From the NCBI RefSeq assembly GCF_053078305.1, contig NZ_CP166879.1: DNA of 64,000 nt. One strand, 5' to 3'. Made by a program: the position numbers and the translations under genes. Below the pieces are notes generated by a model, which did no database searches, had not been told where the DNA came from, and saw nothing but the letters and a program-made list of their open reading frames with translations. Below are positions 19,753-24,783 of the stretch, one piece after another. The first letter of the stretch is position 1; each line of letters starts with the position of its first letter.

Positions 19753-21810
19753 ATGAATATTATGACGTCCAAATGGGTTCAACTATCATCAATGCCCGGA
19801 AACTTTACCGTTAAAGTTTCCGGTGGTACAGCGGCATTTCTTGAGGCTCCTTTTCCTCCGGCTGAAACGAAAGGAGGAATGACATTTGCTGACTGTCTCA
19901 TCAGTTTTAATACACAGGATTGCCTGTGGGTAAGGCCAGTATCCGGTGATCCGAACGTGGAAATTACCGGAGCGGGTATTGGTGCTGTCATTCCGTTAAG
20001 TGCTGATGTTGCCGGTACTACTGAACCGTCAGACTGGGATAATGCTGAAACACATACCCGTCCGGCAGGAAATGAAACGGCTTCCAGCTCCCCTTCCTGG
20101 TATTACGTGATTGTTATAGCCGGTCAGTCCAATGCTTCATCTTATGGTGAAGGGTTGCCCCTGCCGGATTCTTATGATCGTCCTGATCCACGTATTATGC
20201 AGCTGGCACGCAGGAATACACAAACCCCCGGAGGTATTCCCTGCAAATACAATGAAATCATTCCAGCAGATCACTGCCTTCATGATGTTCAGAATATGAG
20301 TCTGCTGAACCATCCAAAAGCAGACCTGAAAAAAGGGCAGTATGGTTGTGTGGGTCAGGGACTTCATATTGCGAAAAAAGTATTACCGGTGATTCCTGCT
20401 GATGCCGGGATTTTACTGGTTCCCTGTGCCCGTGGCGGCTCTGCTTTTACAACCGGCGCAGTTGGCTCATTCGATCCGGCAAGTGGTGCAGCCGAGGCGT
20501 CACTACGCTGGGGAGTGGATACCCCACTGTATCAGGATCTTGTCAGTCGAACGAAAGCGGCACTTGAGGCGAATCCAAAGAATGTGCTGTTATCTGTCGT
20601 ATGGATTCAGGGGGAAGGAGACCTTAAAGCGACCCCGGCCCAGCATGGTGCCCAGTTTACTGCGATGGTGAAAAAATTCCGTGCGGATCTTGGTGCTTTC
20701 TCCGGTCAGTGTATTGGTGGTTCATCAGACAGTGTGCCGTGGTTATGTGGTGACACAACCTATGACTGGAAAGAGAAGAACCCGGCGGCATATGAAACCA
20801 TTTATAGCGGATATAAAAACCGGGCTTCCGAGAACATTCACTTTGTTCCACTGATGCACGATGAGTTCGGTAATAAAACCGCGACCAACCTGCCGGAGCA
20901 CGACCCGGATATCGCTTCTGCCGGGTATTATGGTGCGGAATCACGGGGAGATGGCAACTGGACAACAGCATCCAGGGCAACCCATTTTAGCTCCTGGGCG
21001 CGCCGTTTTCTGGTCTCAGATCGTTTTGCATCAGCAATTCTTAAATATGCAGGTCTGACCTCTGCATTTATTGCCGGTGTGGCCCCTGATGGTGAAGCCC
21101 TGCCTCAGCCCGCGCCGGGTGGAAAACCGGAAGCTCCGACAGGTAGTCAGCCAGGAAGCAGTGAGTCCCCCCAGCCGACATCCCCGTCACTCCGTACGCT
21201 GCTTTCACTTAAAGCATCAGCAGGGGAAGCCCCGGCTCAGGGATGGAAAATTACAGATGGTACAATCCAGCTGACGGACGAAGGTAAAGCGCTGACCGTA
21301 TCCAAACAAAGCGGAAAAACCTGGTCACTTACCCATGCGACCAGTGCTGCCGGAGAGCTGTTGCAGCATGGTGGTCAGTTGACCTGTAAATTCCGTCTGT
21401 CAGGTGAAGTAAAAGAAGGCCAGTTTGCTCTGGGTATTTACCTCCACACCGATACGGTCCCGGAAGGTGTAACCATGAGTGGTACAGGCACACCGTTCCT
21501 GATGGCGTATTATCTCCAGACAACAGGCGGCCAGTTAAATCTGATGCACCATAAAACAGGGGGGAATACGAAACTGGGATCATTTGGAGCCTACAATAAC
21601 CAGTGGCATACACTTGTCCTGAAGTTTACGGCGGGAAGTGCCCAGGTAACGCCTGTGCTGGATGGCACTCCGGGCCAGGCATTCCAGATGGTGAAAGATG
21701 CACTTTCCCCTGCCAAAGATACGCTGACACTGACAGATGTCACCAAAGGGGCAACTTATGGCGTGTCTTTTGAGAGCGTTGTCCTTGAGGTTAATACCCC
21801 TGCGGCATAA
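19753..21810 (+). CDS. SASA/DUF303-type carbohydrate esterase with C-terminal beta-sandwich (lectin-like) domain; accessory gene
   Basis: 685-aa ORF; GQSN motif (IAGQSNASSYGEG) about 120 aa from the N-terminus, typical of sialate-O-acetylesterase-like SGNH enzymes. No obvious signal peptide. Not part of the Mu core. Confidence 0.6.
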   Translation: MNIMTSKWVQLSSMPGNFTVKVSGGTAAFLEAPFPPAETKGGMTFADCLISFNTQDCLWVRPVSGDPNVEITGAGIGAVIPLSADVAGTTEPSDWDNAETHTRPAGNETASSSPSWYYVIVIAGQSNASSYGEGLPLPDSYDRPDPRIMQLARRNTQTPGGIPCKYNEIIPADHCLHDVQNMSLLNHPKADLKKGQYGCVGQGLHIAKKVLPVIPADAGILLVPCARGGSAFTTGAVGSFDPASGAAEASLRWGVDTPLYQDLVSRTKAALEANPKNVLLSVVWIQGEGDLKATPAQHGAQFTAMVKKFRADLGAFSGQCIGGSSDSVPWLCGDTTYDWKEKNPAAYETIYSGYKNRASENIHFVPLMHDEFGNKTATNLPEHDPDIASAGYYGAESRGDGNWTTASRATHFSSWARRFLVSDRFASAILKYAGLTSAFIAGVAPDGEALPQPAPGGKPEAPTGSQPGSSESPQPTSPSLRTLLSLKASAGEAPAQGWKITDGTIQLTDEGKALTVSKQSGKTWSLTHATSAAGELLQHGGQLTCKFRLSGEVKEGQFALGIYLHTDTVPEGVTMSGTGTPFLMAYYLQTTGGQLNLMHHKTGGNTKLGSFGAYNNQWHTLVLKFTAGSAQVTPVLDGTPGQAFQMVKDALSPAKDTLTLTDVTKGATYGVSFESVVLEVNTPAA

Positions 21811-21867
21811 TCGTGACGGCCGGGAATTTATCCGGCTGTAACATCAGTTAATAAGAGTGAGGCTTAT

Positions 21868-22047
21868 ATGACATATATAAACGTCTGCCTGCTGTATTTC
21901 TGCACGGTGGTTTGTTGTCTGTTGCTTGTCAGCGGTGGTTATAAAATTATTCGCAATTATTTTCGAAATAAAATTGATGCAGCTGCCGAGGAAAAGATAA
22001 AAAGCGGTGCTGTAATGCCGCAGCCGAAAGACTCCGGTCAGATTTAA
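21868..22047 (+). CDS. Small hydrophobic (probable membrane) peptide, 59 aa
   Basis: ATG with SD GAGTGAGG; N-terminus VCLLYFCTVVCCLLLV is strongly hydrophobic. Below the ORF-track length cutoff. Confidence 0.4.
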   Translation: MTYINVCLLYFCTVVCCLLLVSGGYKIIRNYFRNKIDAAAEEKIKSGAVMPQPKDSGQI

Positions 22048-22082
22048 TTTTTTGTGAACCAGAAAAGGAAAGGAGAATATTC

Positions 22083-22328
22083 ATGCCAGAGATTAAAGGC
22101 ACGGTTACTGAAGAGCTTGTCAAACAGGCACTTTATTCTGAAGAAGTGAACCGCGTGCTGAAGGCGCAGGTTCGCAAGGATTTTGAGGCACAAATCGACG
22201 CATATGTTGATGAAGTGCTGGCCCGAATGGTTGGCCATTCTCCGGCTGAAAACAGCACGGAGAATGAGCCTCAGCCCGTAGAGCAACCAGAGCCGGTTCA
22301 GCCCGGAACTGACAGTGCCATGATGTAA
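22083..22328 (+). CDS. Hypothetical acidic protein, 81 aa
   Basis: Strong SD (AAAGGAAAGGAGA) 6 nt upstream of the ATG. Confidence 0.45.
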   Translation: MPEIKGTVTEELVKQALYSEEVNRVLKAQVRKDFEAQIDAYVDEVLARMVGHSPAENSTENEPQPVEQPEPVQPGTDSAMM

Positions 22329-22402
22329 CAATACAAACCGACAGCTTCTCCTGTCGGTTTGATTTTCATGGGCGATGTATATACCAGTCAGAGGAAATAA
22401 TC

Positions 22403-22603
22403 ATGGACAAGAACAAAAAGCAGCCCGATACCAAAGGTCTGGAAATATTAAGCGCAGAAATTATCAATGCGCTACGTTCAGGACTTGATGAAAATACATT
22501 ACAGGATCGAAACTTCACCACTGCAATGTGGATAGCGATGCAGATCCTGTGTACCCCAAGATGCGCTATTTTTGCGGTTCGTGAGGGTCAGTTGACTCGC
22601 TGA
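22403..22603 (+). CDS. Hypothetical protein, 66 aa
   Basis: ORF with SD-like AGAGGAAA upstream. Confidence 0.4.
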   Translation: MDKNKKQPDTKGLEILSAEIINALRSGLDENTLQDRNFTTAMWIAMQILCTPRCAIFAVREGQLTR

Positions 22604-22772
22604 TTGCCCGAATTACATCAGAAAAGCACGCGTTCCATAATTGCATAGCTGATGAATCACCAGCTGTATGAAAAGAGGTAAAGACACAACTGGTGGATGT
22701 CATTGCTGCAATTGTGATATCAGCTGCAATTCGCGCAGCCTGTAACTTTTGGTCGGTGGTCAGTTTATCCAT
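22566..22772 (-). CDS. Hypothetical small protein, 68 aa (convergent with and overlapping the previous ORF)
   Basis: Minus-strand ORF; internal ATG (MDKLTTDQK...) preceded by AGGAGA. Confidence 0.3.
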   Translation of the reverse strand: MDKLTTDQKLQAARIAADITIAAMTSTSCVFTSFHTAGDSSAMQLWNACFSDVIRAISESTDPHEPQK

Positions 22773-22845
22773 TTTCTCCTGCCTGAACAGATGCATCTCT
22801 GCTTTACAGGAGGCCGGGGAATATCATAGGATACACCACGAGCTC

Positions 22846-23000
22846 AGAGTGAAGCATTGATGCAGTTTTTTACAGATTGACCCAGAATAGTTCGCGCTAT
22901 CTGAGTCGCCATTTATGTAGTCCCGAAGTAAAGCATTGATGCAAACTTGTCTAAATCGGCCCAGCATAGTTCCAGCTATGCTGGGTTTCCCTTTTATGTA
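22846..23000. repeat. Two tandem ~77-bp direct repeat units, each with AAGCATTGATGCA box plus hairpin plus TTTATGTAGT
   Basis: Copy 2 contains a perfect 10-bp inverted repeat CCCAGCATAG/CTATGCTGGG followed by a T-rich run; copy 1 is a degenerate version. Confidence 0.6.
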
Positions 23001-23184
23001 GTATCCTGTTGATTTGAAACATACTACATATACGCGCGATCCTACCTTCACTGGATAAAAAGTCAATAAAATGATCATTTTATGATCGTTTTCACCACCT
23101 AACTCTTCGTTTTCTTTAAGTAAATAATCACCGCCCTGAATCATTGTTGATGACTTTTCAATCTATTTGTTGTATCAATTAAAC

Positions 23185-23215
23185 AAATCGAATCGATCGT
23201 TTTTGTCGATCGATT
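23185..23215 (+). promoter_or_regulatory. GATC cluster upstream of com (putative Dam/OxyR-controlled mom promoter region)
   Basis: GATC at 23195 and 23208 within a short dyad; further GATC at 23038, 23073, 23084. Confidence 0.45.
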
Positions 23216-23258: not shown

Positions 23259-23459
23259 ATGTATCGAAACATACGGTGCCGACACTGCAATAAGCTACTG
23301 GCACGGGCCAGTTTCAGTTATCTGGAAGTAAAATGTCCGCGCTGTAAAACCCTCAATCAAATCACATCTCCGAGCGCCACAGAGCACCCCACATACACAA
23401 GGAAATCCTGTCGTGGGGAACAGAAAGCAAGTCACATCCCGTATCATCAGCACGCCTGA
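23259..23459 (+). CDS. com: Com zinc-finger translational activator of mom
   Basis: Motif [29 protein letters not shown]...EHPT aligns with the Mu Com C4 zinc finger as recalled; SD GCAGGAGG 10 nt upstream of the ATG at 23259. Confidence 0.75.
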
Positions 23460-24150
23460 ACTTATTCGCTATAACGACAATATCGTTGGTTATGGTTCCC
23501 GTGAGTTGCGGGTTGAGACAATAAGTTGCTGGCTGGCCAGACTGGTTATCGTCAATAAACATTACAGCCACCGTTTCGTAAATAACTCCTACCTTCATCT
23601 GGGCATATTTTCAGAACGGGAACTTGTTGGCGTAATGCAATGGGGTTACGCCCTTAACCCAAACAGTGGTGCACGCGTCGTAACGGGTACGCAGAACCGA
23701 GAATATATGGAGCTGAACCGGCTATGGATGCATGACTGTATGCCGAGAAACTCCGAATCAAGGGCAATCAGTTACGCGCTCAAGCTAATCAGGCAGCTTT
23801 ATCCGCAGGTACAGTGGGTTCAGTCGTTTGCAGATGAGCGTTGTGGCTGTCTTGGTGTCGTGTATCAGGCAAGCAATTTTGATTATGTAGGCAGCCATGA
23901 AACAATATTCTATGAACTTGATGGCGAGTGGTATCACGAGATTTGCAGGAATGCCATTAAACGAGGCGGACAACGAGGTGAACATCTGAGGGCTAATATC
24001 GACAGAGCCAGTGTGCATAAGTTCCGACAGTTTCGTTACATCCGGTTTCTGAACAAGAGGGCCAGAAAACGCCTCAACACAAAGCTATTCAAAGTCCAGC
24101 CTTACCCAAAACCACAAACAGTTAAAACTGGTTTGAAAGAGAGTGAATGA
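23413..24150 (+). CDS. mom: Mom-like DNA modification protein
   Basis: 245-aa ORF overlapping the com 3' end, last gene before the prophage right end as in Mu; start codon uncertain. Confidence 0.65.
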
Positions 24151-24295
24151 GCGCTTAAAAACTCATTCTAAAACTCAAAAGAAAAGCGCCGATTTAGTAT
24201 CAAATAAGTTGCGTATCGGCGTTTTTCAGCGGTATCAAATGAAATGCAAATCGGTATCAAAAAAATCGCCGCGCTATATGCCGCTGACCACAGCA
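24150..24295. other. Mu-like prophage right end (transposase-binding repeats) and junction with lambdoid Z remnant
   Basis: Repeated CGGTATC / GCGTTTTTCAGCGG motifs resembling MuA end-binding sites; sequence ends ...ACCACA (terminal CA) just before lambda-like coding sequence resumes. Confidence 0.35.
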
Positions 24296-24391
24296 TTTAA
24301 ACAGAATATTGAACGTATCCGGCGTGAACGCCTGCCAGAAGAACTGGCATATGCGCTGAAACAACAACTGAGGATTGCGATAAAACGATGA
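24296..24391 (+). pseudogene. 3' fragment of lambda Z-like tail gene, disrupted by the Mu-like insertion
   Basis: Short reading frame ending in ATGA overlap with the U start, as at a lambda Z/U junction; no N-terminal part present. Confidence 0.4.
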
Positions 24392-24783
24392 AACATACTG
24401 ATATCCGTGCAGCCGTACTGGATGCACTGGAGAAGCATGACACCGGGGCGACGCTGTTTGATGGTCGCCCCGCTGTTTTTGAGGAGGCGGATTTTCCGGC
24501 GGTCGCGGTTTATCTGACGGATGCAGAGTATACCGGTGAAGAGCTGGATGCTGATACCTGGCGGGCCACACTGCATATTGAGGTGTTTTTACCGGCACAG
24601 GTACCGGATTCAGAGCTTGATCAGTGGATGGAAAGCCGGATTTACCCGGCGATGGCGGCGATCCCTGCACTGGCAGGCATGATTACCACGATGGTTACGC
24701 AGGGCTATGAGTATCGTCGTGATGACGATATGGCATTGTGGAGCTCTGCAGATCTGACTTATTCCATTACATACGAGATGTGA
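24388..24783 (+). CDS. U: Minor tail protein U
   Basis: 131 aa, near-identical to lambda gpU as recalled ([22 protein letters not shown]...). Confidence 0.9.

Follow-up and report, generated by a model that had tools for sequence, protein, structure and literature searches.

A convergent, 3′-overlapping pair of small genes in the cargo region of Mu-like prophages: selection on both frames and a tentative case for reciprocal antisense control

We have analysed a stretch of 64,000 nt from contig NZ_CP166879.1 (RefSeq assembly GCF_053078305.1), referred to below as the window. From position 1 to ~24280 the window covers the late part and right end of a transposable prophage of the Mu-like kind (Sp18-type), in which baseplate and tail-fibre genes are followed by an invertible G-type segment, gin, a NanS-p-like esterase gene, DUF1378, DUF826, a pair of small ORFs, com and mom. 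The pair, which is the subject of this report, sits in the variable cargo region at the right end of the prophage, between the tail-fibre/gin genes and com-mom (com-dcm in other cases). The features around it are the following.

17655-17836 and 18858-19039, inverted repeats of 182 bp, 91% complementary, flanking the invertible tail-fibre segment
17661-17672 and 19022-19033, gix-like sites TTCCCGTAAACC inside the 182-bp inverted repeats
19102-19662, gin
19753-21810, NanS-p-like esterase gene with SASA and DUF6645 domains
21868-22047, DUF1378
22083-22328, DUF826
23259-24150, com and mom (Pfam Zn_ribbon_Com and Mom)

The end of the Mu-like prophage at ~24280 (24150-24400) lies inside tail gene Z of a lambdoid prophage, and the U, V and G genes come next. 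Prophages of this Mu-like transposable family are often nested within other prophages of STEC (PMC10132054). The same Mu-like DNA occurs at unrelated sites in the chromosomes of other E. coli strains (bcsA, a flagellar locus and an ABC-transporter locus), as is expected since the phage transposes. The succession of NanS-p-like sialate O-acetylesterase, DUF1378 and DUF826 (19753-22328) presumably matches the one that follows stx in lambdoid phages of the Stx-converting type; its location between gin and com suggests an exchange of cargo between lambdoid and Mu-like phages.

The pair itself consists of the following elements.

22403-22603, plus strand, ORF of 66 aa (ATG at 22403, TGA at 22603), hereafter the plus gene
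22390-22395, plus strand, Shine–Dalgarno (SD) sequence AGAGGA, 7 nt from the ATG of the plus gene
22566-22772, minus strand, ORF of 68 aa (ATG at 22772, TAG at 22566), hereafter the minus gene
22780-22776, minus strand, SD sequence AGGAG, 3 nt from the ATG of the minus gene
22566-22603, both strands, the 38-nt overlap of the two 3′ ends

An earlier note, made from the letters of the window, had described a convergent 66-aa and 68-aa ORF pair overlapping by about 38 nt at the 3′ ends, each ORF with a plausible SD; we reproduced the coordinates, with an overlap of 38 nt, and found the two SD sequences (AGAGGA and AGGAG) in place. An alternative in-frame ATG at 22796 would lengthen the minus ORF to 76 aa; this extension is closed in relatives with 92% identity. 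Chance alone gives many ORFs of such size (58 with 30 aa or more are listed within 5.5 kb), so the open frames by themselves prove nothing.

Relatives of the locus were gathered from 17 of 5,426 complete E. coli genomes, nine IMG/VR contigs and several Logan and ENA contigs; they form three sequence groups ~8% apart, plus deletion forms. In a codon-position test on nine haplotypes, 16 of the 22 substitutions in the plus ORF were synonymous (expected fraction 0.28, P=1.5e-5), as were 16 of the 24 substitutions in the minus ORF outside the overlap (expected fraction 0.25, P=2.6e-5). Estimates of dN/dS by the Nei-Gojobori method were 0.05-0.24 for the plus gene and 0.10-0.46 for the minus gene. 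A single metagenome variant has a 30-bp deletion in the plus ORF, which leaves the frame intact.

It is conceivable, and we think very improbable, that the plus ORF alone is functional and that the minus ORF is either a decaying remnant (for example, the tail of the frameshifted upstream pseudogene) or a shadow of constraint acting on the antisense frame. Indeed, an antisense frame with a common wobble position necessarily scores alike in the codon-position test. As the source of the wobble signal in the minus ORF, such a shadow ORF was rejected: the matching plus-strand frame has a stop in the window and is truncated in relatives, and the signal covers 22604-22692, where that frame is closed by the stop codon. 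The idea of a remnant draws on annotation. PGAP reports the plus ORF (hypothetical protein WP_001536755.1) everywhere; of the minus ORF it gives no more than a fragment of 45 aa, in a single genome and next to a pseudogene at 22766-23144. It draws also on the short SD spacing of the minus ORF (3 nt), its higher dN/dS and its more frequent losses. The candidate parent of such a tail is an ORF located just upstream of the minus gene.

22824-23144, minus strand, upstream ORF of 106 aa, a frameshifted pseudogene according to PGAP, belonging to phrog_26524 (99-154 aa elsewhere)

Intact members of phrog_26524 (135-154 aa) end in RRSLSWIKSLFALPV or in a zinc-ribbon sequence, neither of which resembles the 68-aa protein, and with C-termini thus unrelated we discarded the notion that the minus ORF is the frameshifted tail of this family. 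Also against a remnant are the own start codon of the minus ORF, its stand-alone homologues of 65-66 aa in Salmonella (described below) and the dN/dS range given above. The conservation analysis that the earlier note had proposed thus came out positive for both frames, which are kept under purifying selection according to the wobble-position excess, dN/dS and the Salmonella homologues. Judged by these comparisons, both small ORFs are genuine, selected genes.

A word-indexed protein search returned near-identical E. coli relatives and nothing more remote. Remote homologues came solely from an exhaustive HMMER search, in which the 68-aa query was compared with 1.84 billion cluster representatives: P0046 (66 aa, 39% identity, E=6e-5) and P0047 (65 aa, 47% identity, E=1e-4), both from Salmonella enterica, the remaining matches being long repetitive proteins. 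All six Salmonella loci with a homologue of the minus gene are right ends of other Mu-like prophages, and in all six there is a convergent 63-aa partner gene with a 26-nt 3′ overlap. The Salmonella minus gene sits between tail-fibre/gin/cargo genes on one side and, on the other, com-mom, com with a cytosine methylase, or a HEPN pair. The 63-aa partner is homologous to the plus protein (36% identity, BLASTP E=6e-13), with which it has in common the core RNFxxAMWxAMQxxCxP.

Between E. coli and Salmonella protein identity is down to ~38% for both families, with the convergent overlap kept. Each lineage with the minus gene also has the plus family; this covers three haplotype groups in E. coli and three contexts in Salmonella. 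As far as these alignments go, both families, their location and the convergent overlap are inherited together in E. coli and Salmonella. Searches of the GTDB species representatives (100,044 genomes) gave no relative of either family. Searches of 50,697 phage records, by megablast of the region and tblastn of both proteins, also gave nothing, which indicates that isolated phages such as Mu, D108 and SfMu are without the cassette. Cluster sizes put each family at hundreds to thousands of public contigs. On this sampling, the module belongs to strain-variable prophages and has a narrow distribution.

Neither protein has a match in Pfam, NCBIfam, PADLOC or the PDB sequences, and no similarity was seen between the two proteins themselves. 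AlphaFold2 predicts three helices for the plus protein (pLDDT 60) and a helix-loop-helix for the minus protein (pLDDT 67), whose N-terminal helix M[DE]KLT[TI]DQKLQxAR[IM]AxDIT is conserved; thus both proteins are predicted, with low confidence, to be helical. A Foldseek search of the PDB with these low-confidence models (pLDDT 60 and 67) gave no match. The minus protein does have a weak match to phrog_25148, a family of 61-aa phage proteins (E=5e-5 to 3e-3 in three variants, residues 2-28 aligning with positions 3-29 of the profile), a likeness confined to the N-terminal helix. A membrane-grade hydrophobic segment is absent from both proteins in a Kyte-Doolittle scan: the top 19-residue mean reaches 1.53 in the plus protein, where Pro and Arg interrupt the segment, and 1.23 in the minus protein, compared with 2.46 for the neighbouring DUF1378 membrane peptide. 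A literature search by protein accession yielded no paper naming them. Going by the cargo beside the two genes, namely mom, a cytosine methylase or a HEPN pair, we guess that the function is host-modifying or defence-related rather than one in the virion or in replication.

Alignment of the window with two relatives that have neither ORF (L008 and L011) delimits the unit in which the pair is carried.

22362-22790, replacement cassette of ~425 bp, with no content other than the two ORFs and the ribosome-binding site of each

The DUF826-com interval occurs in four structural forms. In form A, that of the window, both ORFs are present and the upstream 106-aa minus-strand ORF is broken by a diverged 79-bp tandem duplication. 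Form B is 92% identical to form A and has no duplication; its upstream ORF has 99 aa, ends in ATGGATAA and overlaps the start of the 68-aa gene. In form C (AST198, CI5 and L006), where com is followed by a methylase, a 472-bp deletion takes out most of the minus-strand genes and the plus gene is retained. This deletion is flanked by 8-bp direct repeats AATCACCT in the 92% lineage (22655-22662 and 23127-23134 in window coordinates; ~4320 in L004). By chance, the junction is in frame: the fused frame begins as the upstream ORF, goes on into the tail of the 68-aa ORF and stops after 15 codons.

Form D, with neither ORF, is the commonest; one form D protein is indexed in ~250 blocks of the collection. 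Homology of form D to the window ends just past the DUF826 terminator and picks up again at ~22790; the place of the cassette is taken by ~135 bp of unrelated DNA with a 56-aa zinc-ribbon ORF (CPAC...CPAC) in the slot of the 68-aa gene. This zinc-ribbon ORF, MDKEPVCPAC...CPAC, has a strong SD (L008 1423-1593; L011 4001-4465), and in some form D genomes a 1-nt change joins it to the upstream ORF to give a 154-aa product. Hence among close relatives the cassette is either present or absent, at a fixed position between conserved genes, as an accessory cassette should be. In these alignments the ~425-bp stretch behaves as a replaceable unit, gained or lost whole relative to the common form. A Gin half-site at 22801-22812 was considered for the cassette exchange and rejected, as it has three mismatches to the prophage's own gix TTCCCGTAAACC and such sites are frequent in the window.

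Several lineages are natural knock-outs of one gene of the pair. A nonsense mutation, C50*, interrupts the plus gene in a lineage represented on 11 contigs, with the minus gene intact, and W46* interrupts the minus gene of strain CP55, with the plus gene intact. The minus gene is also lost beside an intact plus gene, by the 472-bp deletion in AST198/CI5 and by a clean loss in L046. With each gene found broken while the other is intact, the pair does not behave as an addiction module is predicted to. By this record, and provided that the truncated products have lost their activity, neither gene is an antidote that could not be done without. Likewise, since each gene is losable alone, any coupling between the two is not obligatory.

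In the overlap the substitutions among the nine haplotypes are synonymous in five of six cases for the plus ORF and in one of six for the minus ORF; the latter count indicates that the last ~8 residues of the minus protein are unconstrained. The Salmonella homologues of the minus protein stop four residues earlier, and the overlap measures 38 nt in the window versus 26 nt in the Salmonella pair. With six changes in 38 nt among nine haplotypes, the overlap has no extra nucleotide conservation relative to its surroundings. From these patterns, the conserved feature is the tail-to-tail layout without a terminator and not the sequence of the overlap, which could be a by-product of compaction, the part belonging to the minus gene being an unconstrained tail.

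We found no terminator-like site within 22403-22772 on either strand. Consequently, if both genes are transcribed, with no terminator between the stops, their RNAs would be complementary. Terminator-like hairpins, all with interrupted T-runs, are located on either side of the pair, and promoter-like sites upstream of the minus gene.

22334-22361, both strands, left-bracket hairpin after the DUF826 gene, 11-bp stem with T-rich tails on both strands, terminator-like
22803-22832, plus strand, promoter-like site P(+), TTTACA-18-TAGGAT, directed at the 22958-22987 hairpin, with the pair behind it
22848-23002, tandem repeat of two diverged copies of ~79 bp each, unit AGCATTGATGC-hairpin-TTTATGTAG, 75% identity
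22958-22997, plus strand, right-bracket hairpin, 13-bp stem (22958-22987) plus TTTCCCTTTTAT, terminator-like
23039-23066, minus strand, promoter-like site P(-), TTGACT-16-TAGGAT, also present in L002

For the right hairpin, a strong fold is obtained from each of four different stem sequences (z from -2.4 to -4.1). Of the 11 pairs in this hairpin, seven are changed on both sides, a covariation score matched in 0 of 500 shuffles, in an alignment that was anchored by hand on the loop, which favours structure. Its G-U pairs favour the plus strand. The intact stem is found in the second copy of the tandem repeat alone, and H8 has one copy. A similar duplication recurs independently in L018/L033, L023 and L046; this recurrence suggests unequal recombination between different prophage alleles.

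The hexamers of P(+) are invariant across eight variants but for one TGGGAT, while ~10 of the 18 spacer positions vary. The positional equivalents of P(-) in Salmonella are TCGACG-16-TATAAT (10 matching positions out of 12, L026) and TTGACG-16-TATAAT (11 out of 12, L023). Promoter-like matches occur in the region at the chance level set by shuffled sequence, and the one argument for these sites is the conservation of their position. The conserved block with the facing promoter-like sites was seen in the window, L002, L008, L023, L024, L026 and L046; within it (22803-23066) is also a second hairpin, of 9 bp, at 22996-23029.

Transcription from P(-) would give the minus gene a leader of ~260 nt, or ~180 nt in relatives without the duplication, with a predicted fold of z=-4.2. 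A plus-strand RNA of ~75-155 nt starting at P(+) is a candidate antisense RNA to this leader; it has no match in Rfam. As an antisense candidate it is more specific than the ORF overlap, and it falls outside the interval described in the earlier note. Folds of the E. coli and Salmonella leaders did not show consistent sequestration of the SD. Complementarity of 8 nt between the candidate small RNA and the plus ORF was dismissed, being at chance level and not conserved in Salmonella. The ~90-nt block directly upstream of the minus gene is ~80% identical between E. coli and Salmonella, despite the ~38% identity of the proteins. The same block is found in form D, beside the zinc-ribbon ORF, and in the Salmonella-type L046, which has no minus gene; it is thus not specific to the ORF pair. 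The 106-aa upstream ORF overlaps P(-), both hairpins and P(+), which makes its status as a gene doubtful, and its wobble signal is weak (9 of 20 substitutions synonymous, P=0.03). The 99-154-aa 'gene' of phrog_26524 probably covers regulatory DNA. As for the plus gene, no convincing promoter of its own was seen; it stands directly after a terminator and may depend on read-through from cargo or late genes.

The explanation that we find best, and to which we lean tentatively at a little under an even chance, is that the locus is a cassette of Sp18-type Mu-like prophages coding for two selected proteins that are expressed reciprocally. Reciprocal antisense control is the mechanism we would prefer, at under even odds. 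The minus gene would be driven by its own sigma-70-type promoter through the structured 180-260-nt leader, inside which the facing promoter would make the short antisense RNA that ends at the conserved hairpin. The minus gene could then be on in one state, for example in the lysogen, and plus-strand transcription coming from the phage cargo or late region would turn it down. Since there is no internal terminator and the hairpins bracket the pair, the transcript of either gene is expected to run antisense through the whole of the other gene, up to these hairpins. The 63-66-aa gene reads with the phage late genes and the 65-68-aa gene against them.

The main rival is a locus of two independent accessory genes (morons), unlinked in function and packed tail to tail, in which the overlap is neutral, due to compaction and run-on of the minus ORF, and there is no coupling. 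We regard this as the less likely account, to be taken seriously all the same. It agrees with the unconstrained overlapping tail of the minus protein and the varying length of the overlap, and with the finding of each gene alone or inactivated beside the intact other. Furthermore, in two Salmonella variants the plus gene is 93% identical and the minus gene 52%, a difference in conservation that suggests separate histories. What such independence leaves unexplained is that the families co-occur in every lineage with the minus gene, that, by comparison with the common form, both come and go in a single 425-bp unit, and that the convergent layout without a terminator outlasts divergence to ~38% identity.

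There is a close likeness to the morons of lambdoid phages: the locus is a short cassette, present or absent between conserved genes of otherwise similar prophages, in a cargo region beside genes of the lysogenic-conversion type, and it has candidate signals of its own (bracketing terminator-like hairpins and a promoter-like site). The difference is that a moron is one gene with a promoter and a terminator, whereas here there are two convergent, overlapping protein genes; in addition, the carrier here is a transposable Mu-like phage. In the reciprocal scheme that we prefer, the lambda cII/OOP arrangement offers another parallel. The OOP antisense RNA of lambda overlaps the 3′ end of the cII mRNA; here too, with no terminator between, RNA from the convergent unit would cover the 3′ end of the mRNA of a small phage gene, except that this RNA would come from a gene that codes for a protein and is under selection. 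The two facing promoter-like sites, 120-200 bp apart, resemble those of coliphages 186 (pR/pL) and P2 (Pe/Pc), where face-to-face promoters produce transcriptional interference. Unlike in the 186 and P2 switches, the two sites are separated here by a terminator-like hairpin, the genes do not belong to a known type of repressor, and nothing ties the pair to the lysis-lysogeny decision.

The earlier note had seen in the convergent overlap a possible source of mutual antisense regulation, as in some toxin-antitoxin or exclusion modules. No test supported the toxin-antitoxin or exclusion label: neither protein has a match in PADLOC, Pfam or NCBIfam, neither has a segment of transmembrane grade (maximal 19-residue Kyte-Doolittle means of 1.2-1.5), both partners are protein-coding and each gene has been separately lost. 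We consider improbable a toxic pair, in which the harm that one protein does to the cell or to an incoming phage is neutralised by the other protein or by antisense transcription. The evidence in its favour is the long structured leader with a candidate cis-antisense RNA in front of the minus gene, a layout shared by several type I toxin loci (hok/sok, zorO/orzO), as well as three independent events in which the minus gene was lost or broken versus one nonsense mutation of the plus gene, and the location among defence and anti-restriction cargo. Nevertheless, the C50* lineage, with its 11 contigs, keeps the minus gene, and the reverse state is also found.

The same can be said by toxin-antitoxin type. 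With hok/sok, zorO/orzO and par of pAD1 the locus has in common a long structured 5′ leader with a facing promoter-like site inside and, with par, convergent transcription units. The toxin of a type I system is a small, hydrophobic, membrane-inserting protein, unlike either protein here (1.53 and 1.23 on the Kyte-Doolittle scale), the 68-aa protein included. The antitoxin of such a system is a non-coding antisense RNA; here the convergent partner on the opposite strand is a selected protein gene, each gene is losable alone, and a separate antisense RNA to the leader is a prediction. Type II systems are co-directional operons with known toxin and antitoxin domains, whereas this pair is convergent and without domain matches; nor should a type II antidote be losable beside an intact toxin, as the two genes of this pair are in the cases of C50*, W46* and the deletions.

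A bolder version of reciprocal expression is a two-protein switch, in which the minus protein would be an effector of the lysogen, acting, for example, on the host or on superinfecting phages and held in check by the leader antisense RNA, by convergent transcription and by the plus protein as its direct antagonist, until late transcription flips the state. We think this quite improbable. If it were true, the locus would be a toxin-antidote-like system without a membrane toxin and without an operon structure.

Each gene represents a new protein family, restricted to Mu-like prophages that vary between strains of E. coli (STEC included) and Salmonella. No part of a pathogen genome is less understood than its small prophage genes, and many anti-defence and host-control factors have been traced to such ORFs. 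The layout is compact and out of the ordinary, with convergent overlapping genes, bracketing terminators, facing promoters and a covarying hairpin, these signals being predicted ones. Even if the genes are ordinary unlinked morons, the minus gene is shown to have been missed by standard annotation, or merged by it into a pseudogene.

The right-end module next to the pair varies among relatives and was seen in three versions.

L004 4448-5654, L026 3414-4466 and L024 3526-4657, variable right-end modules

These modules consist of com-mom, of com with a cytosine-5 DNA methylase, or of a 257-aa protein with a HEPN-domain protein (PADLOC HEPN_IX, E=3e-6). With such gene content, the right-end region stands out as a hot spot where cargo for anti-restriction and defence collects. 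Just upstream of com in the window there is an inverted repeat AATCGATCGACAAAAACGATCGATT with GATC sites (23191-23215), in which we see a likeness to the part of the Mu mom promoter that is under Dam/OxyR control.
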